DNA of 64,000 bases, from assembly GCA_003599755.1 (NCBI GenBank), contig QZJO01000009.1, positions 86,140 through 150,139 of the forward strand, given 5' to 3'. This DNA is from Candidatus Parcubacteria bacterium. Its GTDB lineage: Bacteria > Patescibacteriota > Minisyncoccia > Sungbacterales > SURF-37. The notes below the pieces were generated by a model. The model saw only the letters and a program-made list of their open reading frames with translations, was not told where the DNA came from and ran no database searches. A program made the position numbers and the translations under genes. This document shows, piece after piece, positions 9,552 through 64,000 of the stretch. Within the stretch, counting starts at the first letter, position 1; every line of letters starts with the position of its first letter.

Positions 9552-9594
<43 letters not shown>

Positions 9595-36526: not shown

Positions 36527-37693
36527 ATGCAGCGGAAGCAAAAAATCCTATTCGTGATAACAAAATCGGTCTGGGGCGGCGCGGGCCGCTATGTCTATGA
36601 CCTCGCCACCCGATTGGATGACGCGGGGCCATTTGATATTGCCGTTGCCTGCGGCGGAAACGGTCCGCTTCTCGAAAAGCTCCGAGAGCGCGGCATCCGC
36701 ACCATTCCCTTGCCCTGGCTCGAACGAGATATCGGCATCGTGCGGGAGCTTGCCGCACTCGGAGCGCTCGTGGCGCTGTTTTTCCGCGAGCGACCGGACG
36801 TCGTCCATCTCAATAGTTCAAAAGTCGGAGGGCTCGGTGCGGTTGCTGCCGCCATCGCCCGGCTCGGCCGGCTTTCCACCCGCCCGCGCGCGATCTTTAC
36901 CGTGCACGGCTGGGCGTTTTATGAACCCCGTCCCCGTTGGCAGCGCTGGATCATCATGACCGCTTCATGGGCAACGGGGCTGCTCTGCGATCGCGTCATT
37001 CTCATCAATACGGCGGATCACCGTTCAGCCGCGCGTTTTATCTCGCACAAAAAACTCGCGCTCGTATTCCACGGCATTAAACCGCTTGCCGCGCTGCCGC
37101 GCGACGAAGCCCGCCGAGCGCTGGCCGTGCGCACCGGCTGGCCGTTCGCCATTGATACCGTGCTCATCGGCGCGATCGCGGAACTGACGCGCACCAAAGG
37201 CCTGGATATCCTGCTCGAGGCCGCCGAGGCGCTCAAAAACCGCGCGGGACGGGAGTCATGGCGCATCGTTATCATCGGTGAGGGCGAGGATCGCGCCAAA
37301 CTTGCCGCGCGTATTGCCGAGCGCGGCCTGACGAATGCCGTGGCGCTGGCCGGATTTATTCCCGATGCCGCAACCCTGCTTTCCGCATTCGACATATTCG
37401 TTCTGCCCTCGCGCAAGGAAGGCCTGCCCTATGCGCTTATGGAAGCCATGAGCGTTGGCGTGGCCGCGGTCGGCAGCCGCGTGGGCGGCGTGCCGGATCT
37501 TATTGAAGACAACGTGAGCGGCAAGCTCGTGCCGGCCGGCGATACGACAGCTCTTGCCGAAGCCATCGGCGAACTGATCGAACATCCCGGTCGGCGGCGT
37601 ATGATAGGTGAAAGCGCCCGTCAGCGCATTCGGTCCGCATTTCCCATCGACACCATGGTTCACCAGACCGCGGCTCTGTATTTGAACGCATAA
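36527..37693 (+). CDS. Glycosyltransferase family 4.
   Basis: GT4 E-x7-E motif region FVLPSRKEGLPYALMEAMSVGVAAV. Confidence 0.85.
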   Translation: MQRKQKILFVITKSVWGGAGRYVYDLATRLDDAGPFDIAVACGGNGPLLEKLRERGIRTIPLPWLERDIGIVRELAALGALVALFFRERPDVVHLNSSKVGGLGAVAAAIARLGRLSTRPRAIFTVHGWAFYEPRPRWQRWIIMTASWATGLLCDRVILINTADHRSAARFISHKKLALVFHGIKPLAALPRDEARRALAVRTGWPFAIDTVLIGAIAELTRTKGLDILLEAAEALKNRAGRESWRIVIIGEGEDRAKLAARIAERGLTNAVALAGFIPDAATLLSAFDIFVLPSRKEGLPYALMEAMSVGVAAVGSRVGGVPDLIEDNVSGKLVPAGDTTALAEAIGELIEHPGRRRMIGESARQRIRSAFPIDTMVHQTAALYLNA

Positions 37694-37697
37694 CTCC

Positions 37698-39149
37698 ATG
37701 CGCCGCTCACTCTCGCCCGCGACGCTCTTGATCCTGGTCGGCGATATCGCCGTATTCCTGGCAGCCATCACGATCACGCTCGTCATCCGTCACGGTGGCG
37801 CTCCCGATGCGTCGATCGTCGAACTTTATCGATTCGCCGCTCCGTTTCTCATCGCGCTCTGGGCGGCCGGTTTTACGATCTTCGGCCTGTACGATATCCG
37901 GTTCGTCAAAAACGATCCGCAATTTTTCGATCGCCTGCTGCGCGCGGTACTCTTCAACGGCGCGGTCACCGCGTTTTTCTTTTATGCGATTCCACGCTTC
38001 GGCTTGCGACCGCTCGGTTCTCTGGTTATTCTCACCGGCGTTCTTGCCGTTCTTACGCTCGGCTGGCGAGGGCTCGCGAATATCATCCTCGCCCAACAGC
38101 GCAAGGATCGGATCCTTTGGATCGGCATCACGCCCGACGTGCTGGCCATCGTCCGGTTCCTGCGGGCAAACCCCCAGCTTGGCTTCGCACCGGCGGCATT
38201 TTTACGCATGCATGGCGAAGACGACCTACGCCTGCACGCGACAAGTTTCAGCGAGCCGGTCTTTCCGGCCGAACATCCCCTCACCGATATTGTCGCGCGC
38301 GAGCGAATAACCCATATCGTTCTCTCCCCCGCCGTTCAGCAGTCGGCGACACTGGCCAAAGCGCTCTTTCGCGTCGTGCCGCTCGGCGTGACCGTCATGG
38401 AATTCGACAAATTCTACGAACTGGTCGAAGGTAAAATTCCCGTGGCGCATATCAACGAGGCGTGGTTTTTTGAAAATCTCATCGGCCAGCGGCGGCCGCG
38501 CTATGAATTCGGCAAGCGGATACTTGATCTTGGATTCGCCGTCCCGTGGGGTATCGCGATGCTCATACTCTTCGCGCCGATTGCGCTCGGCATCGTGCTC
38601 TCGACGCCGCGCGACATCCGCTCCTGGCGCGCGCGCCGCGCCCGGCCGGGCGATGGCATCATCTTTTTCCGCCAGCGGCGCGTCGGGCGCGATGGCCGCG
38701 TATTCCAGTTCGTGAAATTCCGCAGCCAGCGCCTCGGCGCGGAGCGCTACGGCAGCGAAAAATTCGCGGGCAGTCCGCCTGCCGGACGGGCAGGTCATGA
38801 TCCACGCACGTATCCGTTCGGTACGTTCCTCCGCAAAACGTATCTTGATGAATTGCCGCAGGTTTGGAATGTGCTCAAGGGCGACATGTCGTTCGTCGGC
38901 CCGCGGCCCGAGCGGCCGGAATTCGTGCGCGAGCTGGAACGAACCATCCCCTTCTACCGGACCCGGGAACTCGTGCTGCCCGGCATCACGGGCTGGGCGC
39001 AGATCAACATGGAAAACGACGCCTCGGTGTCCGACGCGCCCGAAAAACTCCAGTACGATCTGTATTACATCAAGAACCGTTCGCTCGCACTTGATCTCAA
39101 TATCCTCTTGAAGACCGCGTTGGCGCTTTTACGCCGGAGCGGACGCTGA
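37698..39149 (+). CDS. Polyprenyl-phosphate glycosyl-1-phosphate transferase (WbaP/CpsE-type bacterial sugar transferase).
   Basis: N-terminal TM helices. C-terminal LDELPQVWNVLKGDMSFVGPRPERPEF and PGITGWAQIN are hallmark motifs of bacterial sugar transferases (PF02397). Confidence 0.85.
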   Translation: MRRSLSPATLLILVGDIAVFLAAITITLVIRHGGAPDASIVELYRFAAPFLIALWAAGFTIFGLYDIRFVKNDPQFFDRLLRAVLFNGAVTAFFFYAIPRFGLRPLGSLVILTGVLAVLTLGWRGLANIILAQQRKDRILWIGITPDVLAIVRFLRANPQLGFAPAAFLRMHGEDDLRLHATSFSEPVFPAEHPLTDIVARERITHIVLSPAVQQSATLAKALFRVVPLGVTVMEFDKFYELVEGKIPVAHINEAWFFENLIGQRRPRYEFGKRILDLGFAVPWGIAMLILFAPIALGIVLSTPRDIRSWRARRARPGDGIIFFRQRRVGRDGRVFQFVKFRSQRLGAERYGSEKFAGSPPAGRAGHDPRTYPFGTFLRKTYLDELPQVWNVLKGDMSFVGPRPERPEFVRELERTIPFYRTRELVLPGITGWAQINMENDASVSDAPEKLQYDLYYIKNRSLALDLNILLKTALALLRRSGR

Positions 39150-39209
39150 TCATTCCTGCTGCCGCGGCAGGAGCGTAAAGAAACGGGCGTCTCAATGACG
39201 CCCGTTTCT

Positions 39210-40127
39210 TTACTTCGCGTTTCGCATTTCCAGTTTTTTCTTTACCCGTTCGAGATGTTCCTTGTCGTGGCCGATCACGTCCTCAAGCGCCAGGCCTTGT
39301 TCGGCCAAGAGCGCATCGTTGAACGCGCGATCGGCGCGCAAGAGATCGGCCACCGCGCTAAGGCCGATATCCGCGGCATGCGTGATAAACGCGTCCATAT
39401 CTTTGGGAAAACAAAAACCCCCAACGCCGCGATACCCGCCGTAGAGCACGTCGATATGCGAATCGCCGATGCGGTGATCGGCGGCCATGCCGATGCGCAC
39501 GTTTTCATAATCCGCGCCCATGCGCTCGGCGAGTTTGGCAAGAGCATTCGCGAACATCACCTTGCGGTAAAAATGAACGTTGCGCGCGTACTTGATGATC
39601 TCGGCTTCGGTCGCCGTGATCGCCGTTCGCCGATAGGTGTTGATCCCCCAGGGCGACATGAACGGAGCCTTGGGCAGAAGCGATAACACGGCGTGTGCGG
39701 CATCCTGGCTTTGGCTCGTGAAGCCCACAATCTGGGCATCGGGCCGGACAAAATCCTCCCAGGCGAATTTTTCAGTCAGATTCTCGGGATTGAAAAGAAC
39801 TTTGTGCTCGGGAAATTTTTCCTGAAACGCTTCGGTCGTCCCGGGCGGTACCGTGGATTTGATCACCATGATTTTTGGCGAATGCACGAGCCGGAACGCG
39901 GATTCTACCGCGGCAAGATTCGCCCGGCCGTCCGGCATCCGCGGCGTCGGCACGCAAATGAACACCACCGCGGCCTTGTCCGGGTCGTCGGACATGGCTT
40001 TGGCCGGATCGGTATCGTACAAAAAGAGATCCTTGCCGCGCTCATAGCCGCGCATTTCTTGGAAATAGCGGGCAAGCGGCGTGCCCACCATCCCTACCCC
40101 GATCACCGCAACGGGAATTCGGCTCAT
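39210..40127 (-). CDS. Nucleotide-sugar dehydrogenase family protein (UDP-glucose/GDP-mannose dehydrogenase-like, short form).
   Basis: Rossmann AVIGVGMVGTPLA and catalytic-Cys motif GGFCFPKD. Start taken at MSRIPVAVIG. Confidence 0.7.
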   Translation of the reverse strand: MSRIPVAVIGVGMVGTPLARYFQEMRGYERGKDLFLYDTDPAKAMSDDPDKAAVVFICVPTPRMPDGRANLAAVESAFRLVHSPKIMVIKSTVPPGTTEAFQEKFPEHKVLFNPENLTEKFAWEDFVRPDAQIVGFTSQSQDAAHAVLSLLPKAPFMSPWGINTYRRTAITATEAEIIKYARNVHFYRKVMFANALAKLAERMGADYENVRIGMAADHRIGDSHIDVLYGGYRGVGGFCFPKDMDAFITHAADIGLSAVADLLRADRAFNDALLAEQGLALEDVIGHDKEHLERVKKKLEMRNAK

Positions 40128-40215
40128 GGCAAAAATATTCAGAATTATTGCACTATGAGTGATACCGCCAGTCGCGCGCTTCCGTTTTACCTCGCGCCAG
40201 AACGCTTGCAAAGCT

Positions 40216-42462
40216 TCATAATCCCTGCCGGATCTGGTCGATCAGCTGCTCGCCGCGCTCTTTGAACAGCGGCTCAAGGCGGATCGCTTCTTCGAGCGCG
40301 GCGATCGCCTCTTGATTGCGGCCAGCCCGATAATACATGGCGCCGAGATTCGCATGCGCTTCGGCGCTCTGGGGCGAAGCCGCGACCGCGGCCTCTGAGA
40401 GAGCGACCGCCTTGGCAAAGTCCCCCGCGCGCGCATATGCCTCGGCAAGGCGGGGCTCGGCAGGCGTTCGCGTGCCGTAGAAATCCTCCATGATCTGCTC
40501 GGCGTCGGCCGCGCGGCCGGCAAGAATGAGAATCATCGCGTAGTTCCGCGCCGCCTCGGGATAATCGGGCGCAAGCTCGTAGGCGCGCTGCAATGAACGG
40601 ACCGCGCCTTCGGCGTCATTCGCGTTCAGATACGCTTCGGCGGCGATAAAGTAAAACTGCGGCCGCTGATCGGAAAGCTGGAATAATTCATCGAGCACGG
40701 CAAGGGCTTGAGCCGTTTGCCCCACCGCGAGGTACAGGGACGCGGAAAACACCTTGGATCGCACGTCCGTCGGGAATTCCTCGCGCTGCGCTTCATGCTC
40801 GGCGATCGCGAATTGGAGGAATTTAAGGCGGTCTTGCTCCGCGAGCGATTGATCCGCCGCGAGCGCAGTGGCGATCTGCGCGGCCTGCTCGCGAATTTCG
40901 GTCGCGCCGAACGTATTGCGATCGAGTCCGCCTTGGAACGTCGCGATGAGCGAATCTACCTTGCCTGCTGCGGGCGCGATGCCGTTGATTCTCAAGCCGT
41001 CCAAAATCGATTTGGCGGCAAGCATCGGCTGGATATTCGCAAACCATAGCGCGGCAACGACTACGATCGCGGCAGCGCCGGCCGCGCCCGCAGCGGGTAT
41101 GAGCCCGAATGCGCGAACCGATGACCGCGCCTCGCCGCGCGCGGCCGTCGCGAAGCTATGGATGTACGCAAGCACGGCGAAGAATAGAAGATAACTCGTG
41201 AGGTTATCGAAAACGAATACATTCTGGAACATATGCGCCGCAATAAGCGCTCCGAACACGGCAAATGTCGCCGCGTTCATGCTGCCGCCGCGATGCAGTG
41301 TCCAAAGCAGCCAGGCCGCGGCGGCGTACATGCTCAGATACGCGACCAGGCCGAATATGCCGCCGGCGATCAGCCAATCCAGGAATACGTTATGTGCGCG
41401 ATCGAACCACGGCTCCTGGCGCCAGAGCGCCGGGTCGTAATATTTCGAAAACACGTAGACGAACGAATCCTGTCCCCAGCCGATGATCGGCCGCTCCTGC
41501 CAGCCCTCGAAGGCCATCCGCCAGATGATGAAGCGGGATTGCGTCGTGGTTTCGGAAAGCGATATGGCGGCGAAGCGCGATAGGACGTCGCTTTGGCGCA
41601 CGAATGCCGTATCTCTCACGAGGAAAAACAACACCGGCAGCGCGATTGCCGCGCCGATCGCGCCGAATGCCAATCGCCGGGCCGCGCCGCGGGCAGACCA
41701 GGCAAAGAGGAGGCCGAACACGAACAATCCGCCCAAAAACCCGAGCATCGCGCCGCGGGTCGCGGTGAAGTAGAGCATCACGAGCTCCAGCGCAAACGCC
41801 GCTGTGAGCGCGGCGCGCAAATACCAATTCTTGGTATCGAGTACGAACCAAAGAATGAAGAACAGATTGAATACCAAATACGCCGCATAATACGTGGCGT
41901 TGCCGAACGTCGCGTCCACGCGCGTGCCGCCTTGATGAATTTCAAATACGCCCGCAAGCTGCAGGAGGCCATAGATCGCTGTGGCTATGCTTACGACGAC
42001 GCTCGTGCCGAAAAACAGTCGCCAATCCCATTCAGTGCGAAACGCCGCGGCCAACAGGAAAAAGAAAAGACCGAGATGCAAGATACCAAGGTACCCTTCC
42101 ATTCGCTCGAAGTTGGACCAAAAGCTGTGATATGGCGAGATACCGAATGCCGTAGCCGCGCCCATGACAATAAGAAATGCGAGCACGGCCCAGGCGATTG
42201 TCGACGAACGCGGTCGGAATCGCGGAAACCGGAATGCCGCGTATACCCACACGACCGCGAGCAGTTCGATCAGGACCCGAAACAAAAAGTTCTTTCCCGT
42301 GATGAACGGAAAATAAAGCGAACGCGTAACGACGAAAACTAAAAACGGCGTCACCAAGAGGCCGATCTTCAGGGTCCACGAAAGCGTTTTTTCAGTATCT
42401 GACATGGCAAAATCCAGTGTAGCACCGCCCGCCAAAAAAGAAAGCGCCACCCCGATGCGCAT
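40216..42462 (-). CDS. O-antigen ligase/polymerase-like (Wzy_C) polytopic membrane domain fused to C-terminal TPR repeats.
   Basis: ~12 TM helices with a large periplasmic loop. C-terminal ~250 aa contain TPR-like repeats (AEAYLNANDAEGAVRSLQRAYELAPDYPEA...). Confidence 0.7.
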   Translation of the reverse strand: MRIGVALSFLAGGATLDFAMSDTEKTLSWTLKIGLLVTPFLVFVVTRSLYFPFITGKNFLFRVLIELLAVVWVYAAFRFPRFRPRSSTIAWAVLAFLIVMGAATAFGISPYHSFWSNFERMEGYLGILHLGLFFFLLAAAFRTEWDWRLFFGTSVVVSIATAIYGLLQLAGVFEIHQGGTRVDATFGNATYYAAYLVFNLFFILWFVLDTKNWYLRAALTAAFALELVMLYFTATRGAMLGFLGGLFVFGLLFAWSARGAARRLAFGAIGAAIALPVLFFLVRDTAFVRQSDVLSRFAAISLSETTTQSRFIIWRMAFEGWQERPIIGWGQDSFVYVFSKYYDPALWRQEPWFDRAHNVFLDWLIAGGIFGLVAYLSMYAAAAWLLWTLHRGGSMNAATFAVFGALIAAHMFQNVFVFDNLTSYLLFFAVLAYIHSFATAARGEARSSVRAFGLIPAAGAAGAAAIVVVAALWFANIQPMLAAKSILDGLRINGIAPAAGKVDSLIATFQGGLDRNTFGATEIREQAAQIATALAADQSLAEQDRLKFLQFAIAEHEAQREEFPTDVRSKVFSASLYLAVGQTAQALAVLDELFQLSDQRPQFYFIAAEAYLNANDAEGAVRSLQRAYELAPDYPEAARNYAMILILAGRAADAEQIMEDFYGTRTPAEPRLAEAYARAGDFAKAVALSEAAVAASPQSAEAHANLGAMYYRAGRNQEAIAALEEAIRLEPLFKERGEQLIDQIRQGL

Positions 42463-42493
42463 CGGGGCGGCGCGAAGCCGGAAAGAACGAGAA

Positions 42494-43417
42494 TCAGCCG
42501 ACGCCCGGCAGGAAAACCTGCTCGTGCAGCCGCGGGATGTCGGTGAGGTCGGCGTATGGATGCTCCGGCATCGTCTTCAGCTCCGAGAGAAAGTTCCAGG
42601 AACCCATGTAGGTGTTGCCCGCAATCATGCGCGCTCTGGGCCGGAACTTGCCGCCGAACGTCCAGGCGAACGAACTGGCTCGGATGTCGAGCTGGTACAA
42701 CATGCGCCGAGAGCGAGAGAGCTCCTGTTCGATCTCATCGAGTCCAGTGACATCGAGCGCCGGATGCGTCACGGTGTGCGAGGCGATCTCCATGCCGCTG
42801 TCAGCCATGGCCTGGAGTTGATCGGCGCTCATGAAATACTCGCAGGCGAAGCGCTCCTGCGAGCCGCTGCCGAGCCACCCATCGAACATCTCGTCAAGCT
42901 TCTCCACCTTGAACGACTGCGATGGCCAGTGGTTGAACATCCACTTTATGCGCCGCATCTCCGGCGCCTCACCCATCTTGCGGCCGCTGGTGTCGTAGCG
43001 CTTCGGGTCCAGGAGATCGAGGTACGGCGTGCCGGCGAAGACCTTGGGCAAGATCTCACGCTCCAGACGTTCGGCGCCGAGCTCGGCGATGAGGATCTGG
43101 AAACCGATGACTGGCGGCAGCTTACGCTCGAAGGCGCACGTAATGACGAAGAACGTGGCCGGAACGCCGCACTCCTGGAGGATCGGGAAGGCCGTAGTGA
43201 ACTGATCACGAAGACCATCGTCGAACGAGAGCGTGACGTGCTTGTCGGGGAGGGGCTCCTTGGCATCCAGCCGCCCGGCTACCTCCCCGCACGTCAAGAA
43301 CTGGTAGCCGTCGCCCTTCAGCGCTTCGATCTGCTTCCGAAGGCGGCTCGGCGCGCAGTTGGGGCCGGGGGCTGCGCTATCACGAATATAGTGGTAGCCC
43401 AGATGCAACGCCTGCAT
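42494..43417 (-). CDS. Polysaccharide deacetylase (NodB-homology domain).
   Basis: VTLSFDDGLRDQ (motif 1, D-D) and EIASHTVTHP (His motif). Confidence 0.8.
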   Translation of the reverse strand: MQALHLGYHYIRDSAAPGPNCAPSRLRKQIEALKGDGYQFLTCGEVAGRLDAKEPLPDKHVTLSFDDGLRDQFTTAFPILQECGVPATFFVITCAFERKLPPVIGFQILIAELGAERLEREILPKVFAGTPYLDLLDPKRYDTSGRKMGEAPEMRRIKWMFNHWPSQSFKVEKLDEMFDGWLGSGSQERFACEYFMSADQLQAMADSGMEIASHTVTHPALDVTGLDEIEQELSRSRRMLYQLDIRASSFAWTFGGKFRPRARMIAGNTYMGSWNFLSELKTMPEHPYADLTDIPRLHEQVFLPGVG

Positions 43418-43524
43418 CGCTTACCTCTTTCTGGCGCGCGTGCGCCGATCGACGTGATGGTGCTGCTTCAAAAACAGTGATAACCGTAGCATAACTACGG
43501 CTTCTGTCAATACTCTGACAGTGC

Positions 43525-43998
43525 TTATTTCCACCCCGGCACTGCTTCCAACGCCACCAGATCCTTCGCCGGAATTTTGATAATGACGAGGCGCGCGGTC
43601 CCCTCGGCGCGATGCGCATGCGGCTGGCCAGCGGGAATCCAGAGCCAATCCCCCGGCCGCAGCGCCACTTCGGTTCCATTTCTGATTTCACTCGCTTTGA
43701 TCTCGCGGTCATCCACGCCGCCGTCCAGCAATTTCTTTGCCCACGGTTCGACGAGCTCGCCACCATATACAAACGTCACCTCACCCTCGAGGCATTGCCA
43801 CAAATCACTCTCGTGCCGATGCACTTCGGCTTCATTGACGACCGCGTAATCTTCGAGAATGTTGATCGGCAAGCCGTGCCGCAGCGCGAGCGATTTCAAC
43901 GGCTCAAGCAAACGCTTGCCTGCGCTCGGCTCCGTGCCGAGCGTTTCGTCGATGGCTGATTTGCGAATCACGGCGCACTGCGCCAGCACGGATGCCAT
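43525..43998 (-). CDS. Cupin-domain protein.
   Basis: LWIPAGQPHAHRAEGTARLVIIKIP: cupin motif 2-like beta-barrel signature. Confidence 0.55.
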   Translation of the reverse strand: MASVLAQCAVIRKSAIDETLGTEPSAGKRLLEPLKSLALRHGLPINILEDYAVVNEAEVHRHESDLWQCLEGEVTFVYGGELVEPWAKKLLDGGVDDREIKASEIRNGTEVALRPGDWLWIPAGQPHAHRAEGTARLVIIKIPAKDLVALEAVPGWK

Positions 43999-43999
43999 G

Positions 44000-44863: not shown

Positions 44864-44865
44864 GA

Positions 44866-45582: not shown

Positions 45583-45684
45583 ACCATGCTCAGTGTAGCG
45601 GTTATTGACAAAACAGACAAGAAATGATATTTACGAATGGCTTATAAAACGTTCCTTCCACCACTACCCGTCTCAGGAGGCATC

Positions 45685-46746: not shown

Positions 46747-46804
46747 GGCGCCGGCACAACACCGCGCGAATCAAGCGGCGCCCAGACGGGCGCCGCTGTT
46801 TTTG

Positions 46805-48037: not shown

Positions 48038-48040
48038 GCG

Positions 48041-51492: not shown

Positions 51493-51501
51493 AGCGGATA
51501 G

Positions 51502-52530: not shown

Positions 52531-52593
52531 ACCCGGTAGTAGAATTCGATAATTTTAGATATCTTCTTTACGGCCTATGCATACTAAAGGATA

Positions 52594-55061: not shown

Positions 55062-55134
55062 GGTTTAGTAATCGAATATGGCATGCAAGAGCGAGCCAGC
55101 GCAATGCCTCGCATGCGCGTGATGGAAATTGTTT

Positions 55135-57314: not shown

Positions 57315-58293
57315 AAAAGTTGAGCATCCGGAGGGGAATCGGCGTAAGCGCCGCGACCAGGGCGAAGGCGAGCGCCCAGAGGTTTCTATGAAAGAGTTTC
57401 TTGCCCACGAGGAAGAACAACAGAAAATTCACCTGGGAAAACACGAAGAGCGCGGCAAGGTATGCGGGATATATCTTTCCTTCGGCGGGAACGAGGAATG
57501 CGGCGAACACGAGCGAAGGAATCGGATTGCGCAACGTCGTCGGCGAGTCGTCGGCGAAGGGATCAGAGGAGGGTGAATGGCCGTCGTATACTTCCCGCGC
57601 GCGAGCAAGATAGGTAAGATCGTTCCGGTAATTTTCATAAGAGAATACGAACGGCTGGCCGTCGTTCGTCTCTAAATATTCCGCGATCGCCCACAACGGC
57701 CCAACATGGAGCAGGCCGACGATAAGCGAACACGCGGCAACCAGCATCGGGAATACCGGCCGTACCGGCGTCTGGGAAACGCCCGGGAGCGCCGCTCCGA
57801 TACCATCGCGCATAGCCGCGGATCTGTCACGGAAGACGAAAAATCTAAACCCGCAGTAGTTCCACGCGATAATGGCCACAATCGAAAGCGCCTCGGCGAA
57901 GTTCGCCCAAACGACTTCGGCAAGATCCTCGAATGCCGCAAGCTGTGGCGCGGGTGGAATGAGCGTGGTTACCACATAGACGACGCCGGCGTTGAGCGCG
58001 ACCGCGCCTCCGTTGACGAGCACGAATTTGAAAAACTGCCAGGCCCCTCCGCGCGCGCGAAACACCCAGCGACTGTTCCACGCGTAGCTATGTACGATCA
58101 CCACCGCCGTCGAAAACGCACTGATAACCATGAACGCGATACCGGCGTAGACGTCAAAAAACGCGCCCAGCAAATTCACGAGCGCGAAAAAAAGGAGCGT
58201 GTTGAGGACGCCGACAACCACGTAGCGGATGAATCGCGGGGATACGAGTCCGAAGATTCCGCCCCCTTCCCTGCCGAGTCCGAACAATCGCAT
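57301..58293 (-). CDS. GtrA-like membrane protein with an extra C-terminal TM region.
   Basis: FIRYVVVGVLNTLLFFALVNLL...HSYAWNSRWVFR matches the GtrA family (PF04138). Confidence 0.6.
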   Translation of the reverse strand: MRLFGLGREGGGIFGLVSPRFIRYVVVGVLNTLLFFALVNLLGAFFDVYAGIAFMVISAFSTAVVIVHSYAWNSRWVFRARGGAWQFFKFVLVNGGAVALNAGVVYVVTTLIPPAPQLAAFEDLAEVVWANFAEALSIVAIIAWNYCGFRFFVFRDRSAAMRDGIGAALPGVSQTPVRPVFPMLVAACSLIVGLLHVGPLWAIAEYLETNDGQPFVFSYENYRNDLTYLARAREVYDGHSPSSDPFADDSPTTLRNPIPSLVFAAFLVPAEGKIYPAYLAALFVFSQVNFLLFFLVGKKLFHRNLWALAFALVAALTPIPLRMLNFYGTA

Positions 58294-58343
58294 GGATTCG
58301 ATAATACTAGCAGACGGGGCCGAAAAATTGAACTACATACGGG

Positions 58344-59314
58344 TCATCCGCTACGGGCGCGATACCAATCAATGGTCTTTTGGAGTCCCTCGTCGAGATC
58401 CGTCTTCGCCCGAAACCCGAGCAAGCGCTCGGCTTTCGAAACGTCGACCAACCGCACCGGGATCATGGATGGTTTTGAAGCATTGAATTGAATCCGGGCG
58501 CCAGTAAACCCGTCGAGCTCGAGAATTTTGTCGAGCATGTCTTTAACCCGATATCCTTTGCCGAGCCCGATATTGAATACATCGTATCGATCGATTTTCT
58601 CTGCAGCCAGCAGCATCGCATCCACTACGTCGTCTACGAAAATCGGGTCCCGTACATCCTCCCCCGTCCCCCATACTTCAAGCGGGTCTTGGCGTTCGAC
58701 GACTTTGCGGATGAGCGCGGGGATGACGTGCGAGACCGCGGGATCGAAATTATCGCCGGGGCCGTAAACATAGGAAAGCCGGAGAACAATCGTGGTCATC
58801 GGCTTGGCAAGCTTTTCTCCGTACATCCGCGCGAGCACTTCGGTGATGCGCTTGGACCATCCGACGAAAAAGTATTTCTCGAACGGATCGCCTGAAAACA
58901 TCTCCTCTTCGCGCACCGGCCGCTGGCCGGTCGGCGGATAGGCGGTGGTACTTCCGAGCCACACGAGTTTTCGGACGCCTGCGCGGTACGCCGCATCGAA
59001 AACGTTCGCGTCAATGGCGATGTTCGATGTGACGCTCTGCAGCGGATCGCGCGCAGTGGCGCCCGCGCCCGGGGTGTAGGCCGCGCAGTGAAATACGTAG
59101 ATAACGCCTTCAAGCGCCTTTTTGCACTCCTCCGGCCTGGCAAGATCGGCTTGTACGTACGATGCGCCCGCTGCGCGATCCTTCGGCTCCGTCCGGTTGA
59201 ACGTCGCGCGCACTACCGCGCCCGCTTCGACCAGGCGCTTGGCAAGATTCGAGCCGATCAGGCCGGATGCGCCGGTGACGAGCACGGTTTGATTTTTGAG
59301 CAATGAGTCGGCCA
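58344..59314 (-). CDS. NAD-dependent epimerase/dehydratase (SDR family).
   Basis: Start at MADSLLKNQTVLVTGASGLIGSNL (SD AAGGA 8 nt upstream). The track ORF runs 109 codons further upstream in the same frame through an Arg-rich low-complexity stretch. Confidence 0.8.
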
Positions 59315-59407
59315 TGGGACAATCCTTAATCCTTACTACCATTGCACATACCGTGCTGTAACAAAAGAAAAGCCCCCGGCGCATGCGTCGCGCCGAGGGT
59401 GCAACTG

Positions 59408-60202
59408 TCAACGATCCTCTACTCCCGGGGGGCGAAGCTGTCGAAGCCCGAGATACGTCGTGCCGACGGTGACCATGTCCGGCCCTGCAGCTTGCGTATC
59501 GCCGATCTGGATGTGCTCCTGATCTCCGCCGTCGAGGAGCGCAAGCCACTCGTACACCGGGAACAGGACCGTACCGATAAACTCGCCCGCATCGAGGTTG
59601 CGGCTCGACTTCTCGACCGGGTTCCTGGGAATCCCGAGGCACGGGAAGATCAGATCCCCGGTCGCGCCGACGTGCACGGGAATGGCCGAGCGGCGCAGGA
59701 ACTCGACCCGGTCAAGCGCGATCCGCGTCTCCTCTTCGAACTCCCGGGCAGCACCTTCGGCCAGATCCTCGCCCTTCTTGAAGCCGCCGGAGGGGAGCTG
59801 CAGGATGACGCGCTTGACCGCGGGTCGGTAGGACGCCGTCACCGGCACGAGACGGCCGATCGGCGAGGGCACGACCGCGAAGGTGATTGAGTAGGCGCGG
59901 CCGGGGCTGATGTGGAAGTACGTGGTCGGCTTCCCATCGGGTCCCTGGTAGATCGCGGCGGCCATCGGCGGGACGAAGCGGAGCTCCTTTCGTTGCGCCT
60001 CGGCAAGGTCCCGCGCCTGGTAGTCGGCGACCGGGACTTCCTCGACGAGCGACCAGTTGTCGATGCCCATCTCGCGAAGCACGTCGTAGACGCTCTTCGC
60101 GTTCACCACACGGAGGTCATAGATTGTCTCCACGCTGATTCTCCTCCCAGTTTGGAATGAACAGTCGAAACAAGCTGTAAATGAAATCCAATAAAAAGTC
60201 AA
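59408..60202 (-). CDS. NUDIX hydrolase.
   Basis: Nudix box GGFKKGEDLAEGAAREFEEETRI. True start may be an internal Met (e.g. MGIDNW at 60070). Confidence 0.6.
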   Translation of the reverse strand: MTFYWISFTACFDCSFQTGRRISVETIYDLRVVNAKSVYDVLREMGIDNWSLVEEVPVADYQARDLAEAQRKELRFVPPMAAAIYQGPDGKPTTYFHISPGRAYSITFAVVPSPIGRLVPVTASYRPAVKRVILQLPSGGFKKGEDLAEGAAREFEEETRIALDRVEFLRRSAIPVHVGATGDLIFPCLGIPRNPVEKSSRNLDAGEFIGTVLFPVYEWLALLDGGDQEHIQIGDTQAAGPDMVTVGTTYLGLRQLRPPGVEDR

Positions 60203-60248
60203 GGAAACCCGCGGGCGAGCAAATTTGCTATTTCAAAGAGTCTGGATG

Positions 60249-61316
60249 CTAAAACGGCCCGCGGAATTCGGCGATCTCTTTTGAAATCTCGCCTTTGGCC
60301 GTCCAGGGACGGCGGCCGTGAAGCAGCCGATGCGCGGCTTCGGCGATCGTGCGCGGATTTGGATAGAAACGGTCCTCGAGCGGACGCGAAGGCGGGCAGG
60401 TAGTCGCGGCGAATCCGAGGCGTTCGAGTTTCGGCAGCGCGAGTTTTTCTTTCTGAAAATACTCGACGATTCGCGCGATAATCTCCGCACCCGCGCCGCA
60501 GGTAGGCCATGCGTTGTCCGCGATAAGAAGGTGTTTCGTCTTTTTGACCGAACGGAGAATGGTATCCATGTCGAGCGGGGCCAGCGTCACCGGGTCGATC
60601 ACCTCCACCCGGATGCCGGCATCCTCGAGCAGATGGGCTGCCCGGAGCGATTCGGGCACCATGTAGGATATCCCGACGATGGTTACGTCGCTCCCTTGTT
60701 TCAGCACGCGCGCCCTGCCGAACGGCACGGTGTAGGGTTTGGCCGGCACATGTCCCTTCATCGTGTGCAGCATGCGGTGTTCGATGAATACCACGGGGTT
60801 GTTGTCGCGAATGCTTTGGATAAGCGTCCCTTTCGCGTCATACGGCGTAGAGGGGATTACTACCTTCAGTCCCGGTACGTGCATGAAGAACGAATAAAGG
60901 GCTTGCGAGTGCTGCGCGCCCTGCCCCCAAGAGCGGCCGATCACCGAGCGAAATACGGCGGGAATGTTCACCGAACCGCCGTACATGTAGCGGGCCTTTG
61001 CCGCGATATTTACGATCTGGTTCATCGCGAGCAGCAAAAAATCCATGCGGATATGGGCGTGGATCGGACGCAGGCCCGCGAGCGCGGCTCCGATCGCGAC
61101 GCCCGTCATCGCATCTTCGGAAAGCGGCGTATCGAATATGCGCGACGCGCCGAATCTTTTTTGAAGGCCGGCAGTAGTTCCCCACATGGCGATATGATCG
61201 TCCACTCCCATCCCAAACATGAACACCGAGGAGTCGCGGGCCATTTCTTGTTCCTGCGCCTCCCGAATTGCCTCAGCATAGGTGAGAATGCGCTCCTTCA
61301 TACTAGGCAAAGACAT
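60249..61316 (-). CDS. TPP-dependent 2-oxoacid dehydrogenase E1 component, beta subunit (transketolase-like).
   Basis: E1-beta fold: N-terminal pyrimidine-binding half and C-terminal transketolase_C-like half (DAGIRVEVIDPVTLAPLD). Confidence 0.85.
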   Translation of the reverse strand: MSLPSMKERILTYAEAIREAQEQEMARDSSVFMFGMGVDDHIAMWGTTAGLQKRFGASRIFDTPLSEDAMTGVAIGAALAGLRPIHAHIRMDFLLLAMNQIVNIAAKARYMYGGSVNIPAVFRSVIGRSWGQGAQHSQALYSFFMHVPGLKVVIPSTPYDAKGTLIQSIRDNNPVVFIEHRMLHTMKGHVPAKPYTVPFGRARVLKQGSDVTIVGISYMVPESLRAAHLLEDAGIRVEVIDPVTLAPLDMDTILRSVKKTKHLLIADNAWPTCGAGAEIIARIVEYFQKEKLALPKLERLGFAATTCPPSRPLEDRFYPNPRTIAEAAHRLLHGRRPWTAKGEISKEIAEFRGPF

Positions 61317-62301
61317 CGGTGAAAAGCTCCTCTACCTTCGGAAAAGGACTTTTCTCGGCGTATGCGAATGCTGCTTTGATTTCACGCTCAACCGCGCGCT
61401 CGATTGCGGCGCGTTTTTTCGGAGCGAGAAGGTTCCCGATGCGCGGGAGCTGATCATTCTTCACCCATGGCTCGAGTTCCTTCTTCGTGCGATATCCCTG
61501 GTCGTAGTCATCACCGGGACCCACGTGCTGGCGCCAGCGATACGTCATACACTCGAAAAATATTGGTCCGGATTTCCCTGCCGTGATGGCTTGGCGCGCG
61601 CGCCGCGCGCGCTCGTAGATCTTCAGCACGTCATTGCCCTCGATGCGCTCCGCCGGCATCCCATAGGCCCGCGCCCGTTCTACGATATTCGCGCGGGCGT
61701 GGCGCGCGCGCTCATGGGAATGGATCGCGTAAAAATTGTTTTCGCAAATAAAGATAACCGGGAGTTTTCTTAGCGCGGCGAAATTCATACTCTCGTGCCA
61801 TACCCCCTCGTCAACGCCGCCGTCTCCGAAAAAGCTCACCGCGATCCGATCCCGGTCGCCGCGGTAGCGGATCGCGAGCGCAAAACCCACAGCTTGCGGA
61901 ATCGTGGTTCCGACGATTGCTGACGCACCCATGACGCCGACGCGAACGTCAATCAAATGCATGGAACCGCCCTTGCCTTTGTTCGAGCCAGTATGCTTGC
62001 CGTAAAGCTCGGCGATCATTTTTTTCAGATCACCCCCCTTGGCGAGATAAAGCGCGTGCGACCGATATGTACCGAAAACAGCGTCCTGTGGCTTTAGGGC
62101 CTCGGCAACCCCGACCGACACGGCCTCCTGGCCAATAGAAAGATGCACGGGACTTTGAATTTTGTCCGTGGGATACACCCGCGCAATTTCCTCTTCTACG
62201 CGCCGTATTCGATAGAGCGAGCGGTAGAGCGTCTCATGAGATATGGATTTCATCGGATGCGGATCGATCAAGCCGGCAGGCCGGCGAAGTGCTTGTGCCA
62301 C
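61303..62301 (-). CDS. TPP-dependent 2-oxoacid dehydrogenase E1 component, alpha subunit.
   Basis: TPP-binding GDG-X24-27-NN region: SFFGDGGVDEGVWHESMNFAALRKLPVIFICENNFYAI. Confidence 0.85.
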   Translation of the reverse strand: MAQALRRPAGLIDPHPMKSISHETLYRSLYRIRRVEEEIARVYPTDKIQSPVHLSIGQEAVSVGVAEALKPQDAVFGTYRSHALYLAKGGDLKKMIAELYGKHTGSNKGKGGSMHLIDVRVGVMGASAIVGTTIPQAVGFALAIRYRGDRDRIAVSFFGDGGVDEGVWHESMNFAALRKLPVIFICENNFYAIHSHERARHARANIVERARAYGMPAERIEGNDVLKIYERARRARQAITAGKSGPIFFECMTYRWRQHVGPGDDYDQGYRTKKELEPWVKNDQLPRIGNLLAPKKRAAIERAVEREIKAAFAYAEKSPFPKVEELFTDVFA

Positions 62302-63374
62302 ACGAGGTATTCGCGGAAAAACCCTTCCATCATCTCCTTTTCCGCCTGCGGAAGATTCGTGAGTGCTTTGGCGCGCTCAAGACCTTGGGCGGCGAGCTCG
62401 GCCGTTGCCGCGCGATACGACTTCTCGGCAAGCGGTATTGACCGAAGGAGTTTTACGAATCGGTCCGCTCCCCGGTCGTTTACCAGTTCGTCCTCTAAAT
62501 CCTTCCAGAAATCATGAGGATTCCGAAACTGCTTCACCAGCGGATAGCCGTACGAGATGATACCGCCGAGGTGCTCCGCCAGTTTGCAGACGAAAAAACT
62601 CGTCCAGATGTCGGCATTCCGACCGGTGGAAACAGGCGTGTAATATGCCGGTATGATTTCGCGCGCAAAGGCCGTGTTTTGGTTGTTGAACGCGCACCAC
62701 GTGCCGGGCGCGAGCCCGAAATTCGGCTGGAACGCCTCGTCCATCCCGACAATGCGCACCGGCCAAAAGAGGCGCGAAATCGCGTCTTGATCGGGATCTT
62801 CCAGCACGAGCCCGTTGTTGACGATAACGGTGCCCGCCTGCTTCGCCACTGATTTCTGCTGGAGTTTGTACTGGCGCTGGCCCCACGGGAATCCCCGCGG
62901 AAAAATCGGAATTCCTTTCTCCTCGCGAAGCGTCTCGTAGACATTCCACCAGCCGGTTTCGGTCGAAACGAGCGGAAGCGTCGGAGACGTACCGGCGATC
63001 TTATGCGCGCCGACGAAATCAATATCAGTGACGAAATTATCATCGTCGACCGAAATTAGCGTTTCGCATCCTTCCTGGTACGCGACAAGATGCCAGAGAA
63101 GCCGCCGCACGGGCGTGTTTTCCGGCACCATCGCCCAAAGCTCGGGGAACTCGGCAAGGCGCTTGCGCTGATCATCGAGATCCACATAAGTAATCGGGAT
63201 GTTGTACTTCACCGATACCGTCTCGCAATGCGCTTTCGTTTCCGGCGGCGTCTTGCGGTCGCCGATGATGTACCACGCCAAATCAGTATGCCGATGCGCC
63301 GCAATATTCGCGCACACTTCATCAATGAAGGTCGGTACGCGGATCGTGGTGGTGAGGAGGACGGTTTTAGCCAT
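62268..63374 (-). CDS. Putative GT-A-like glycosyltransferase (DxD-containing) of unknown specificity.
   Basis: LISVDDDNFVTD acidic motif. No close family recognised. Confidence 0.4.
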   Translation of the reverse strand: MAKTVLLTTTIRVPTFIDEVCANIAAHRHTDLAWYIIGDRKTPPETKAHCETVSVKYNIPITYVDLDDQRKRLAEFPELWAMVPENTPVRRLLWHLVAYQEGCETLISVDDDNFVTDIDFVGAHKIAGTSPTLPLVSTETGWWNVYETLREEKGIPIFPRGFPWGQRQYKLQQKSVAKQAGTVIVNNGLVLEDPDQDAISRLFWPVRIVGMDEAFQPNFGLAPGTWCAFNNQNTAFAREIIPAYYTPVSTGRNADIWTSFFVCKLAEHLGGIISYGYPLVKQFRNPHDFWKDLEDELVNDRGADRFVKLLRSIPLAEKSYRAATAELAAQGLERAKALTNLPQAEKEMMEGFFREYLVWHKHFAGLPA

Positions 63375-63383
63375 ACACGAGCA

Positions 63384-63821
63384 TTACATGATGCGCTGCG
63401 CACCAAGGAAGCTTCGTACTTCAGACATTGTGCCGCGCGGGAACGATTTAAAAAATGCGATCTTCTGGGCTTGGGCGCTTCCACGAAGGCGACCGCCGAT
63501 CGGCCGCGCGAGATACACAACGCTCACACTATGCTGCCATCGCCCGAGATAACGGTACTCAATGACGCCGACGATCCGTTGCACGGCAAGCTTCAAACCA
63601 GTCTCTTCGCGGGCGATCCTCCGGATTGCAGCCGGTAATTGTTCCTGCATCCGGACTCGCCCGCCGGGAAGATGCCACATGCCTTTATCCGGCTGAATAT
63701 CACGCCGCGAGAGTATGATGCCCCGCGCGTCCCGGATCACCAGATCCACGCACAAACGCGGCACCTTCCGATAGATCGAACGATACTTCCTATCTGAAAG
63801 CCACGCGCTCGTGTTGGCCAT
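63384..63821 (-). CDS. NUDIX hydrolase, GDP-mannose mannosyl hydrolase-like.
   Basis: Nudix box GGRVRMQEQLPAAIRRIAREETGL. Confidence 0.7.
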   Translation of the reverse strand: MANTSAWLSDRKYRSIYRKVPRLCVDLVIRDARGIILSRRDIQPDKGMWHLPGGRVRMQEQLPAAIRRIAREETGLKLAVQRIVGVIEYRYLGRWQHSVSVVYLARPIGGRLRGSAQAQKIAFFKSFPRGTMSEVRSFLGAQRIM

Positions 63822-63822
63822 G

Positions 63823-64000
63823 ATCAGCGCCAGAAAAAAAATTCGTACGCGAACTGGATGAGATGCGCAAACCCGATACGGAAGAGTTTGAGGCGCCGCT
63901 CCGGGTCGAGGCGCTTCGGCTCGTCTCCGGGAATCTCGACGACGTCGAGTTTGCGCTTCGCCGCGCGCACGGACATCAGCGCTTCCCAGGGAATATTCAT
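63823..64000 (-). CDS. Partial small ORF at the window edge (>=59 aa, N-terminus possibly beyond the window).
   Basis: No stop codon between 64000 and the TGA at 63823..63825, which overlaps the ATG of the downstream Nudix gene (ATGA coupling). Confidence 0.2.

Follow-up and report, generated by a model that had tools for sequence, protein, structure and literature searches.

Layout of the locus and its nonulosonic acid core

A cell-surface glycan locus with a putative module for making a nonulosonic (sialic-type) acid (NulO) was analysed at positions 36527-64000 of a 64-kb window (the whole stretch of 64,000 nucleotides considered here), which is part of a 264-kb contig from the metagenome-assembled genome of a Candidatus Parcubacteria bacterium. 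Open reading frames (ORFs) were called and then scanned with Pfam and NCBIfam, and what is said below to be missing from the window refers to the ORFs so scanned. The locus is a contiguous, gap-free, cell-surface glycan cluster of 25 genes, 22 of which lie on the minus strand, with intergenic gaps of at most 156 nt or overlaps between neighbours, and it continues past the end of the window in a stop-free minus-strand frame at 63824-64000. The tight gene spacing gives an operon-like layout, and the GC content (0.57-0.63) is similar to that of the remaining window. An earlier, sequence-only reading of this DNA had described a contiguous and mostly co-directional glycan locus of about 27 kb, which agrees with what was found, and it had named a split across an assembly break as the event that would undo it; no sign of such a break was seen, the window containing no N and its GC being uniform. 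An assembly artefact was ruled out by the same two properties and by synteny kept in independent genomes. All domains named in that reading were recovered in place by Pfam and NCBIfam with strong statistics, the Nudix protein at 59408-60202 being weak. Its inventory stands for these genes and omits an E1 alpha/beta pair, a truncated UDP-sugar-dehydrogenase-like protein (truncated UGDH), a cupin, two glycosyltransferase (GT)-like genes (53949-55061 and 62268-63374), an orphan GT-B protein and a polytopic protein at 55818-57314. The core of the NulO module consists of three genes.

46805-48037, minus strand: NeuC/LegG-family hydrolysing UDP-GlcNAc 2-epimerase (PF02350, E 8e-69; TIGR03568, 357.8 bits, cutoff 235.9)
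48041-49135, minus strand (NCBI call to 49243): NeuB-family NulO synthase with SAF domain (PF03102, 242.5 bits, cutoff 22.1; PF08666, 30.4 bits, cutoff 21)
44866-45582, minus strand: CMP-NulO synthetase of the CTP_transf_3 (NeuA/LegF/PseF) family, no esterase domain (PF02348, E 7e-24, 85.2 bits)

The NeuC protein passes the TIGR03568 equivalog, a model that does not separate NeuC from LegG, and reached just 58.3 bits with the model of the non-hydrolysing WecB. It is 36% identical to NeuC of legionaminic acid (Leg)-type clusters and 27% identical to E. coli K1 NeuC, with no similarity to PseG. Its gene is separated by 3 nt from that of NeuB, in which Pfam matched both a full-length NeuB TIM-barrel domain and the C-terminal SAF domain. 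Alignment to N. meningitidis NeuB (1XUU) showed K53, Q55, K129, H215, E234, H236, D247 and R314 to be identical, and E134D and N184S to be substituted; an AEIG motif, which we take to hold E25, is present outside the alignment. The R314 residue is said, after Gunawan et al., to bind the N-acetyl group. The E134D change occurs in 29% of environmental sequences and has been described as an archaeal/eukaryal change (PMC8208679). For the NeuA-like protein the best NCBIfam model was PseF (172.1 bits, cutoff 205.7), with KdsB models far below their own cutoffs, and its identity is 40% and 33% to cytidylyltransferases of clusters of the Leg or pseudaminic acid (Pse) type and 32% to E. coli K1 NeuA. 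The NeuC/NeuB/NeuA-type module proposed by the sequence-only reading is thus present, on the grounds of the NeuC equivalog and of Pfam gathering scores exceeded by NeuB and NeuA.

These family-level assignments are compatible with a pathway in which NeuC would act on a UDP-HexNAc by hydrolysis and epimerisation (in the simplest case turning UDP-GlcNAc into ManNAc), the divergent NeuB would condense the NeuC product with phosphoenolpyruvate into a 5-acylamido nonulosonic acid, and the NeuA-like enzyme would activate the NulO as a CMP-sugar. We hold with moderate confidence that the locus builds a surface glycan carrying a sialic-acid-type NulO. The NeuB-like protein is identical to the NCBI entry 'hypothetical protein C4552_02680 [Candidatus Parcubacteria bacterium]' on a contig of 263,839 bp, with NCBI locus tags C4552_02670-02700, and the label 'hypothetical protein' is borne alike by NeuB and by the TagF-like and orphan GT-B proteins described below.

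Distribution of the NeuB clade and its neighbours

A scan of GTDB species genomes with NeuB returned relatives in at least 223 species, and hundreds of NeuB proteins at 70-78% identity were returned by homology search, forming a large, tight family. The best 80 of the 223 relatives are 56-77% identical to NeuB, and they carry the record titles Sungbacteria, Giovannonibacteria, Harrisonbacteria, Yanofskybacteria, Portnoybacteria, Magasanikbacteria and Paceibacteria, in addition to several Woesearchaeota and Nanoarchaeota bins; these lineage labels are record titles, and some in the list are plainly unreliable automatic labels. Such a distribution suggests that the NeuB clade is shared between two groups of ultra-small symbionts, Patescibacteria and, by label, DPANN. 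In the DPANN-labelled (Woesearchaeota/Nanoarchaeota) bins the clade was seen at 57-63% identity (L035, L041, L042, L047, L059 and L067).

A bootstrapped neighbour-joining tree was built with references defined by gene context, namely E. coli K1 neuBCA, a canonical Leg cluster, haloarchaeal and alphaproteobacterial Leg-like clusters and canonical Pse clusters, the N. meningitidis reference sequence being partial. In this tree a long stem sets the NeuB clade apart, and its identity to each of the reference synthases for N-acetylneuraminic acid (Neu5Ac), Leg or Pse is 32-37%; the clade falls outside the PseI clade (100% bootstrap) and is not grouped with the LegI references. The NeuB phylogeny that the sequence-only reading had proposed as a check therefore places the protein in a clade of its own and excludes PseI, and at its deep nodes it does not separate Neu5Ac from legionaminic synthases. 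Because the clade lies outside the curated NeuB/LegI and PseI definitions, it is missed by standard annotation.

Neighbouring genes were counted by blastp of the window proteins against the best 80 loci. NeuC was found in 54 and NeuA in 53, followed by the 2-hydroxyacid dehydrogenase as the commonest further neighbour (32), the Wzy_C-TPR protein (27), the truncated UGDH and the TagF-like protein (25 each), the EamA transporter (23), a short-chain dehydrogenase/reductase (SDR; 20), the phosphoglycosyltransferase (18), the cupin (13), the NodB deacetylase (12) and the two methyltransferases (11 and 7). GT2 enzymes, Wzx-like flippases and Capsule_synth (KpsC/S-like) proteins also recur, as does a GT-B family that lies directly beside NeuB in relatives and gives marginal Pfam matches to Glyphos_transf and alpha-2,8-polysialyltransferase. 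On the 1.03-Mb contig of the L001 locus the order is NeuB, NeuC, an unannotated gene on the opposite strand, NeuA, Wzy_C-TPR and short UGDH, with a phosphoglycosyltransferase and a GT4 gene further on. Since the cassette recurs and the L001 order is kept, the locus in the window represents one version of a lineage-wide cassette rather than a one-off acquisition. As judged from sequence, the NulO cassette has been conserved across genomes of the Parcubacteria type (Patescibacteria) and, going by record titles, in some DPANN archaea as well. A NulO module had been called unexpected for a reduced-genome organism, a view that is overstated: at least 223 GTDB species have the clade, and Patescibacteria is the label on most of the best 80.

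Many relatives carry a second, paralogous NeuB that is 29-38% identical, sometimes without SAF (L001 3375-9892; L091 11100-14829; L092 11762-16091), and that is accompanied by its own CTP_transf_3 protein, a HAD/Hydrolase_3 phosphatase and varying SIS, APH-kinase, Gfo or SDR genes. This set looks like a separate phosphorylated-sugar route, similar to Kdn-9-P or Kdo synthesis, and it is absent from the window.

A life attached to host cells is generally assumed for candidate-phyla bacteria and DPANN archaea, and hardly anything is known of the surface molecules that take part in it. With at least 223 species-level genomes containing it, the locus shows that very small genomes retain a costly sialic-acid-like pathway, which points to an important surface function. 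It is conceivable, at a rather low probability, that Patescibacteria and (by title) DPANN share a lineage-specific NulO system making an undescribed NulO chemotype on ultra-small episymbionts for attachment to the host or its evasion. The parts of such a system, proposed with equally low confidence, would be the NeuB clade, the 2-hydroxyacid dehydrogenase, the cupin, EamA, the truncated UGDH, unclassified GT-B proteins and Wzy_C-TPR. The main interest of the locus lies in this breadth of conservation across ultra-small symbiont lineages and in its unassigned transferases and tailoring enzymes; as targets for enzymology, NeuC and NeuB are joined by the TagB/SpsB-like protein and the orphan GT-B with its His-Pro motif as candidate CMP-NulO transferases. 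No dedicated study was found in the full-text literature on NulOs of candidate-phyla bacteria, Patescibacteria, Parcubacteria or DPANN, and a single passing sentence on sialic acid genes in candidate-phyla bacteria was met in the searchable literature (PMC4736985).

Transfer and assembly of the glycan

NulO transferases are described as poorly known in the literature. Three genes of the locus bear on the transfer step.

52594-53952, minus strand: TagB/SpsB-family GT-B enzyme ('TagF-like', Glyphos_transf-like; PF04464, 48.7 bits, gathering score 22.1)
45685-46746, plus strand: orphan GT-B-fold protein between NeuA and NeuC, on the opposite strand; no Pfam or NCBIfam match
53949-55061, minus strand: Glyco_trans_1_2-like putative GT (PF13524, E 2e-6)

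The first of them had been read as a TagF-like alditol-phosphate, or teichoic-like, transferase, an assignment that is doubtful. Its PF04464 match is confined to profile positions 250-366 of 367, the C-terminal third. With NF046086, the model of the BFO_1060 family, it shares 56 bits (E 3e-15) in the N-terminal region only, against a cutoff of 200, which denotes similarity and not membership. Foldseek comparison of its AlphaFold model (pLDDT 92.9) with the PDB returned generic GT-B folds among the top 50 matches (2-epimerases, MshA, NeuC and GT1 enzymes) and no TagF or TarL, and a PDB sequence search gave a weak and uninformative TarL match (8VA1, E 0.13). Genes for CDP-alditol supply (TagD, TarI/TarJ), and with them CDP-glycerol or CDP-ribitol genes, were found neither among the scanned window ORFs nor among the Pfam families listed for three loci picked through TagF-like homologues, and the scanned window ORFs hold no cytidylyltransferase besides the CTP_transf_3 protein. 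In these three ±8-kb views (L091, L092 and L093, the second and third overlapping on one contig), NeuB and CTP_transf_3 occur in two, the third (L093) having neither, and a methyltransferase lies directly beside the TagF-like gene in all; the order Glyco_trans_1_2-like GT, TagF-like protein and methyltransferase seen in the window is repeated in L093. The TagF-like gene was likewise present in 25 of the 80 NeuB-anchored loci. Because no CDP-alditol gene lies nearby and the gene recurs beside NeuB and CMP-synthetase genes, the protein is more plausibly a candidate CMP-NulO transferase than an alditol-phosphate transferase.

A known parallel is general protein O-glycosylation in Tannerella forsythia (Tanf_01245, TFUB4_00887, BFO_1060), in which a soluble TagB/SpsB-type GT-B enzyme is also encoded with NulO genes and is matched weakly, through BFO_1060, by the protein here; the Tannerella glycan is O-methylated and the glycan of our locus may, like it, be linked to protein (PMC5420450). 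The TagB-domain proteins of the BFO_1060 family are validated by knockout as required for the addition of Pse or Leg derivatives to the O-glycan (PMC5420450). By contrast, the 56 bits scored in the window fall far short of the 200-bit family cutoff, the organism is of the Parcubacteria type and not Bacteroidota, and Pse or Leg is an unlikely identity for the NulO here. Were the protein at 52594-53952 instead a true CDP-alditol phosphotransferase, the locus would make a teichoic-like phosphodiester polymer to which another enzyme, such as the orphan GT-B, adds the NulO. The passing of the PF04464 gathering score, the name 'CDP-glycerol glycerophosphotransferase family' given by NCBI to its homologues, the weak TarL match and the finding that SpsB of B. 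subtilis, a TagB-domain protein, is dispensable for Leg transfer (PMC7439481) would all fit this. It is nevertheless rather improbable in view of a match restricted to the last third of the profile, the missing TagF and TarL among the top 50 folds, the presence of CTP_transf_3 and NeuB with no TagD/TarI/TarJ-type gene in the window or the three anchored loci, and the requirement for TagB-domain proteins in Pse/Leg addition in Tannerella. In Bacillus toyonensis, a gene named 'CDP-glycerol glycerophosphotransferase family' borders a canonical pseC-pseG-pseH-pseI cluster on plasmid p239 (L087 1-663), a further TagB-family gene next to NulO genes and a point in favour of the CMP-NulO transferase reading.

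The orphan GT-B protein was modelled with a pLDDT of 82 and a pTM of 0.81, and Foldseek matched the model in the PDB to UDP-GlcNAc 2-epimerases, MurG and GT1 enzymes at TM 0.6-0.65 (E about 1e-9). An exhaustive profile search placed it in a small, fast-evolving family of 317 representatives at 50% identity (E <= 1e-3). A His-Pro pair, H194-P195, follows the first strand of its C-terminal domain and reaches at least 90% conservation in the family. When 96 family members were scanned with Pfam, two matched Epimerase_2 weakly and there was otherwise essentially nothing, and profile-profile comparison with the TagF-like family was not significant. At the corresponding position L001 and L002 hold an unannotated opposite-strand gene of 319-355 aa, with no sequence match detected. 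The modelled fold makes this protein a second candidate NulO or nucleotide-sugar transferase, or else a hydrolase- or epimerase-like enzyme. In the proposed pathway the CMP-NulO would be added by a GT-B enzyme, with the TagB/SpsB-like protein as first and the orphan GT-B as second candidate.

Assembly and decoration of the glycan, and possibly a transport step, may be assigned to the following genes.

36527-37693, plus strand: GT4 glycosyltransferase (GT-B, Glycos_transf_1; PF00534, E 2e-36; PF13439)
37698-39149, plus strand: large polyprenyl-phosphate phosphoglycosyltransferase (Bac_transf, WbaP/WcaJ-like), predicted to be initiating (PF02397, E 4e-52, 176.7 bits; TIGR03025, 301.6 against 295.55)
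40216-42462, minus strand: Wzy_C (O-antigen ligase family) protein with C-terminal TPR (PF04932, E 6e-23, 81.8 bits, cutoff 31.7; many TPR models)
44000-44908, minus strand: EamA/DMT transporter (PF00892, E 3e-18, two repeats)
55818-57314, minus strand: polytopic membrane protein with C-terminal soluble domain, no family match, at least 7 hydrophobic segments
57301-58293, minus strand: GtrA-family membrane protein with extra C-terminal transmembrane segments (PF04138, E 2e-16)
63824-64000, minus strand: C-terminal 58 codons of a gene starting beyond the window, GT2/GtrB-like by eye, frame ending ...VVEIPGDEPKRLDPERRLKLFRIGF...FFFWR*

The phosphoglycosyltransferase, which has about 5 hydrophobic segments before its catalytic domain and scores below the subfamily models (WbaP, 168.9 against 403; WcaJ, 217 against 411), would start an oligosaccharide linked to undecaprenyl-PP, and GT4 and other GTs would extend it; GT4 homologues were recognisable in 3 of the 80 related loci, and a GT4 gene also flanks the L001 syntenic core. 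The Wzy_C-TPR protein, with about 12 hydrophobic segments and matched in the PDB sequence search through its TPR part only, would then act outside the membrane, either polymerising the unit or joining it to an acceptor, which may be a protein or the cell wall. A large Bac_transf initiator, cytoplasmic GTs and a polytopic Wzy_C protein are shared with Wzy-dependent und-PP assembly (WbaP/WcaJ; Wzy, WaaL, PglL). The locus departs from it by having no recognisable Wzx or Wzz in the window and a Wzy_C domain that is fused to TPR and consistently paired with the truncated UGDH-like protein. The lipid-linked polymer of the sequence-only reading is supported as regards its phosphoglycosyltransferase and Wzy_C assembly genes, 'polymerase' being one of three possible roles next to ligase and O-oligosaccharyltransferase. 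The PF04932 family covers WaaL ligases and PglL/PilO O-oligosaccharyltransferases. This coverage, the fused TPR domain that suggests recognition of a protein partner, the want of a Wzz or other chain-length regulator among the scanned window ORFs and the capping of a protein O-glycan by NulOs in Tannerella (PMC5420450) would be explained if Wzy_C-TPR acted as a PglL- or WaaL-like transferase and the NulO glycan were placed on surface proteins (pilins, S-layer) or on the wall, not polymerised into a capsule or O-antigen-like chain. Wzy polymerases can match PF04932 too, however, and no acceptor protein was identified, so that we regard this as a serious possibility that falls short of being probable.

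The 3' end of the gene for the CMP-NulO synthetase runs into the EamA gene, and in the 23 loci that contain EamA, it often lies between NeuA and NeuB. CMP-sialic acid transporters of eukaryotes are members of this superfamily too, and by this analogy the protein might, speculatively, move a CMP-sugar or a lipid-linked sugar across the membrane. The polytopic protein (498 aa; 5 of the 80 related loci; uninformative in the PDB sequence search) has a gene overlapping that of GtrA by 14 nt and is possibly a GT-C-type transferase. Along with GtrA and the GT2-like gene at the end of the window, whose frame stops 2 nt short of the start codon of the Nudix gene, it may form a Gtr-like set adding side decorations. 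A GtrA-domain protein overlapping a polytopic protein, with a probable GT2 C-terminus at the window edge, resembles Gtr-type modification (GtrA/GtrB/GtrC); unlike in that system, GtrA here has extra transmembrane segments, the GT2 gene lies about 5.5 kb from it and is cut by the window, and the GT-C assignment is tentative.

The sugar and its tailoring

References for LegB/C/H, PtmE, PseB/C/G/H, DegT and NeuD were compared with the 64-kb window by tblastn, which gave a generic SDR match only, and no aminotransferase, N-acetyltransferase, PtmE-like nucleotidyltransferase or PseG was found within the window. The search for aminotransferase or PglF/E/D-type genes that the sequence-only reading had suggested thus yielded just this SDR, 27% identical to LegB. 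Among 81 related loci (±10 kb), an aminotransferase was present in 6 (DegT identity confirmed), an acetyltransferase in one and PseG in none. Because the aminotransferase/acetyltransferase branch is not in the window and is rare in relatives, we consider a sugar of the Neu5Ac type, formed straight from UDP-GlcNAc, to be likelier than legionaminic acid; the Neu5Ac-type route would be the simplest reading. Of the 'sialic- or legionaminic-like' sugar predicted earlier, the sialic-like half fits better and the legionaminic half is disfavoured. Pseudaminic acid is very unlikely as the product, judging from a PseI score below cutoff (TIGR03586, 205.8 against 340.25 bits), a position outside the PseI clade and no PseG, PseC or PseH by tblastn in the window. 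The earlier reading had also counted SpsE-type enzymes as a non-NulO class, which is out of date: B. subtilis SpsE is itself needed for legionaminic acid synthesis (PMC7439481).

With the Neu5Ac pathway of E. coli K1 and N. meningitidis the locus shares a hydrolysing 2-epimerase, NeuB with SAF and an adjacent CTP_transf_3 protein, the lack of an aminotransferase/acetyltransferase branch and the N. meningitidis NeuB catalytic residues. It differs in that its enzymes are just 27-32% identical to those of K1, in a NeuB with E134D and N184S whose score stays under the cutoff of TIGR03569, in having no NeuD, GT38 polysialyltransferase or Kps ABC exporter, in a NeuA without the C-terminal esterase, and in its accessories (2-hydroxyacid dehydrogenase, cupin, EamA and methyltransferases). 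E. coli K1 NeuE and NeuS and a Bacillus TagB-family fragment showed no detectable similarity to any window protein. With the Leg pathways (C. jejuni Leg/Ptm, B. subtilis sps and haloarchaeal clusters) it has in common NeuC- and NeuB-like enzymes, a small cytidylyltransferase and a neighbouring Gfo/Idh/MocA gene, NeuC and NeuA being slightly closer to the Leg-type enzymes than to those of K1; LegB/PglF, LegC, LegH and PtmE are, by contrast, not found in the window or in most related loci.

Several observations weigh against a sialic-acid-type glycan. The NeuB protein fails the TIGR03569 (NeuB/LegI) model, at 262.9 against 399.65 bits. The N184 residue that is changed here reportedly contacts the substrate in the N. 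meningitidis NeuB structure. With both cutoffs failed and N184S present, the aldose substrate of NeuB can be assigned only tentatively. The NeuB clade groups loosely with N. meningitidis NeuB in a tree whose deep nodes are not resolved, and NeuC and NeuA are marginally closer to enzymes of Leg/Pse-type clusters (36%, 40%) than to K1 (27%, 32%). The genomic scope for the Leg branch was 64 of 264 kb, and aminotransferase or acetyltransferase genes could lie elsewhere. As for the later steps, the fold search did not separate TagF-like, sialyltransferase-like and epimerase-like functions for either GT-B candidate, with matches led by 2-epimerases; SpsB is dispensable in B. subtilis; neither a Wzx-type flippase nor an ABC exporter could be recognised in the window, which leaves the export step with no assigned gene; and the roles of the tailoring enzymes and of the E1 pair are ones that we infer.

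These points leave room for two other products. A legionaminic-type 5,7-diamino NulO would require that the dehydratase, aminotransferase and N-acetyltransferase be encoded elsewhere in the genome and that NeuC act as LegG on a 2,4-diacetamido-trideoxyhexose nucleotide. In keeping with such a product are the 36% identity of NeuC to Leg-cluster NeuC/LegG against 27% to K1, a NeuA 33-40% identical to Leg/Pse-cluster enzymes with PseF as best model, the Gfo/Idh/MocA gene beside NeuB, which canonical Leg clusters also have, the DegT aminotransferase in 6 of 81 related loci and an SDR 27% identical to LegB. The SDR, however, has GDP-fucose synthase as its best model and reaches 65 bits with the LegB model against a cutoff of 475; NeuB is not with the LegI references in the tree; and neither the window nor, within 10 kb, 75 of the 81 related loci hold an aminotransferase, the window also lacking an N-acetyltransferase and a PtmE-like gene. 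We regard legionaminic acid as distinctly unlikely.

Only slightly less doubtful is that the NeuB clade makes some other or new ulosonic acid, Kdn-like or derived from a phosphorylated or oxidised aldose, with the 2-hydroxyacid dehydrogenase, the cupin and the truncated UGDH as core and not tailoring enzymes. To our knowledge, none of these three belongs to the textbook Neu5Ac, Leg or Pse pathways, and they recur in 32, 13 and 25 of the 80 loci, respectively. Equidistance of NeuB from all reference types (32-37%), failure of both equivalog cutoffs, the active-site changes E134D and N184S, and an identity within the clade that is unusually high across many lineages (56-77%) point the same way. 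Opposed to this are the NeuC equivalog encoded 3 nt from NeuB, which implies a substrate of the 2-acetamido-mannose type, the retention of R314 as contact for the N-acetyl group, and the lack in the window of a kinase or HAD phosphatase for a phosphorylated route, both of which accompany the paralogous NeuB of relatives. The sialic-acid-type NulO remains our preferred product, and the sugar or the glycan may be tailored by enzymes encoded as follows.

39210-40211, minus strand: truncated UDP-sugar-dehydrogenase-like protein (PF03721 and PF00984 only; TIGR03026, 137.8 against 189.8)
42494-43417, minus strand: NodB-type polysaccharide deacetylase (PF01522, E 3e-18; PgaB/IcaB-like models below cutoffs)
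43525-44031, minus strand: Cupin_2 protein, possible sugar isomerase/epimerase (PF07883, E 1e-9)
49292-50443, minus strand: Gfo/Idh/MocA oxidoreductase (PF01408, E 4e-13)
50530-51492, minus strand: D-isomer-specific 2-hydroxyacid dehydrogenase, PGDH/glyoxylate-reductase-like (PF02826, E 6e-54; all NCBIfam equivalogs below cutoff)
51502-52530, minus strand: S-adenosylmethionine (SAM) methyltransferase (Methyltransf_23), paired with the TagB/SpsB-like gene (PF13489, E 2e-13)
55135-55821, minus strand: SAM methyltransferase (Methyltransf_11/25; PF13649, E 4e-21; 11 of the 80 related loci)

The methyltransferases and oxidoreductases of the locus could modify the sugar, and tailoring of the sugar or glycan would involve the 2-hydroxyacid dehydrogenase, the Gfo/Idh/MocA protein, the cupin, NodB and both methyltransferases. 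The cupin homologues in related loci are 48-72% identical, and close Gfo/Idh/MocA homologues were found in 2 of the 80 loci, with other Gfo-family genes in 10. A link of the 2-hydroxyacid dehydrogenase to N-glyceroyl modification of NulOs was considered and dropped, the Tannerella paper offering no genetic basis for it (PMC5420450). The truncated UGDH has the N-terminal and central domains and no C-terminal UDP-binding domain, and it keeps the motif GGFCFPKD, whose Cys we take to be the catalytic residue of UDP-sugar dehydrogenases. Its homologues in 25 of the 80 loci are 54-64% identical, 319 aa long in L001, and adjoin Wzy_C-TPR wherever both occur; a pseudogene was ruled out by the same short form being kept in 25 loci. 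The substrate of this protein may not be a UDP-sugar.

The distal part of the locus holds six further genes, five of which may constitute a second sugar-nucleotide module.

58344-59342, minus strand: extended SDR, GDP-L-fucose-synthase-like (PF01370, E 1e-49; start probably 59342 or 59315)
59408-60202, minus strand: weak Nudix-box protein (PF00293, 30 bits, residues 135-170 only; no NCBIfam match)
60249-61316, minus strand: thiamine diphosphate (ThDP)-dependent 2-oxoacid dehydrogenase E1 beta-like protein (PF02779 and PF02780; NF006667, 303 against 321)
61303-62301, minus strand: ThDP-dependent 2-oxoacid dehydrogenase E1 alpha-like protein (PF00676, E 3e-65; TIGR03182, 297.6 against 393.85)
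62268-63374, minus strand: protein with a sub-threshold STELLO-glycosyltransferase match (PF03385, 22.3 bits, cutoff 27.8)
63384-63821, minus strand: Nudix hydrolase, GDP-mannose-mannosyl-hydrolase-like (PF00293, E 6e-14; NF011963, 52 against 146)

The SDR scored 163 bits with the Fcl model NF047922, for which the cutoff is 500. A metagenome scan with the 62268-63374 protein returned only a homologue 35% identical to it, whose gene adjoins an SDR gene in L083. Both E1 subunits are below their equivalog cutoffs, and no lipoyl, E2 or E3 family was seen by Pfam among the scanned window ORFs, so that membership in a pyruvate dehydrogenase (PDH) complex is not indicated. Pairs of E1 alpha and beta proteins such as AviB1/AviB2 add two-carbon branches to keto-sugars in antibiotic deoxysugar pathways. 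Like these pairs, the one here stands alone, in the company of an Fcl-like SDR and a GDP-mannose-hydrolase-like Nudix protein; unlike with them, no 4,6-dehydratase was seen in the window, and E1 scores just below the PDH cutoffs make an ordinary 2-oxoacid decarboxylation possible. By analogy, the Fcl-like SDR, the two Nudix proteins and the E1 pair may carry out a C-branching or decarboxylating step on a keto-sugar, and such a module may yield a sugar that is deoxygenated or C-branched. Near a Leg-type cluster of Haladaptatus (L084 13551-15864) there are likewise genes for E1 alpha, E1 beta and, in addition, a lipoyl protein; the identities of 32-41% give no specific support to a tie between the E1 pair and NulO clusters.

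The upstream half of the window encodes SecA, SecDF, FtsW, MurB and EF-P besides many unannotated ORFs, which fits a candidate-phyla genome. A 5S rRNA gene lies at 7062-7178 (minus strand) and a 23S rRNA gene at 7418-11126 (minus strand), the latter spanning 3709 nt against a model of 2925 nt, which indicates an insertion of about 780 nt; insertions of this kind are typical of rRNA genes in candidate-phyla bacteria. An ORF of 90 aa inside the insertion (10181-10453, minus strand) appears GIY-YIG-like by eye (MRYIEKMYYVYVLRS...YYIGFS). Because rRNA genes occupy the region, several long 'ORFs' in 7074-11432 are considered spurious. The gene at 15475-17430 (minus strand), next to that of an unknown 427-aa protein, encodes a VirD4/TraG-like coupling-protein ATPase of type IV secretion that includes a zinc-finger region, and this ATPase may be part of a DNA-uptake or secretion apparatus.

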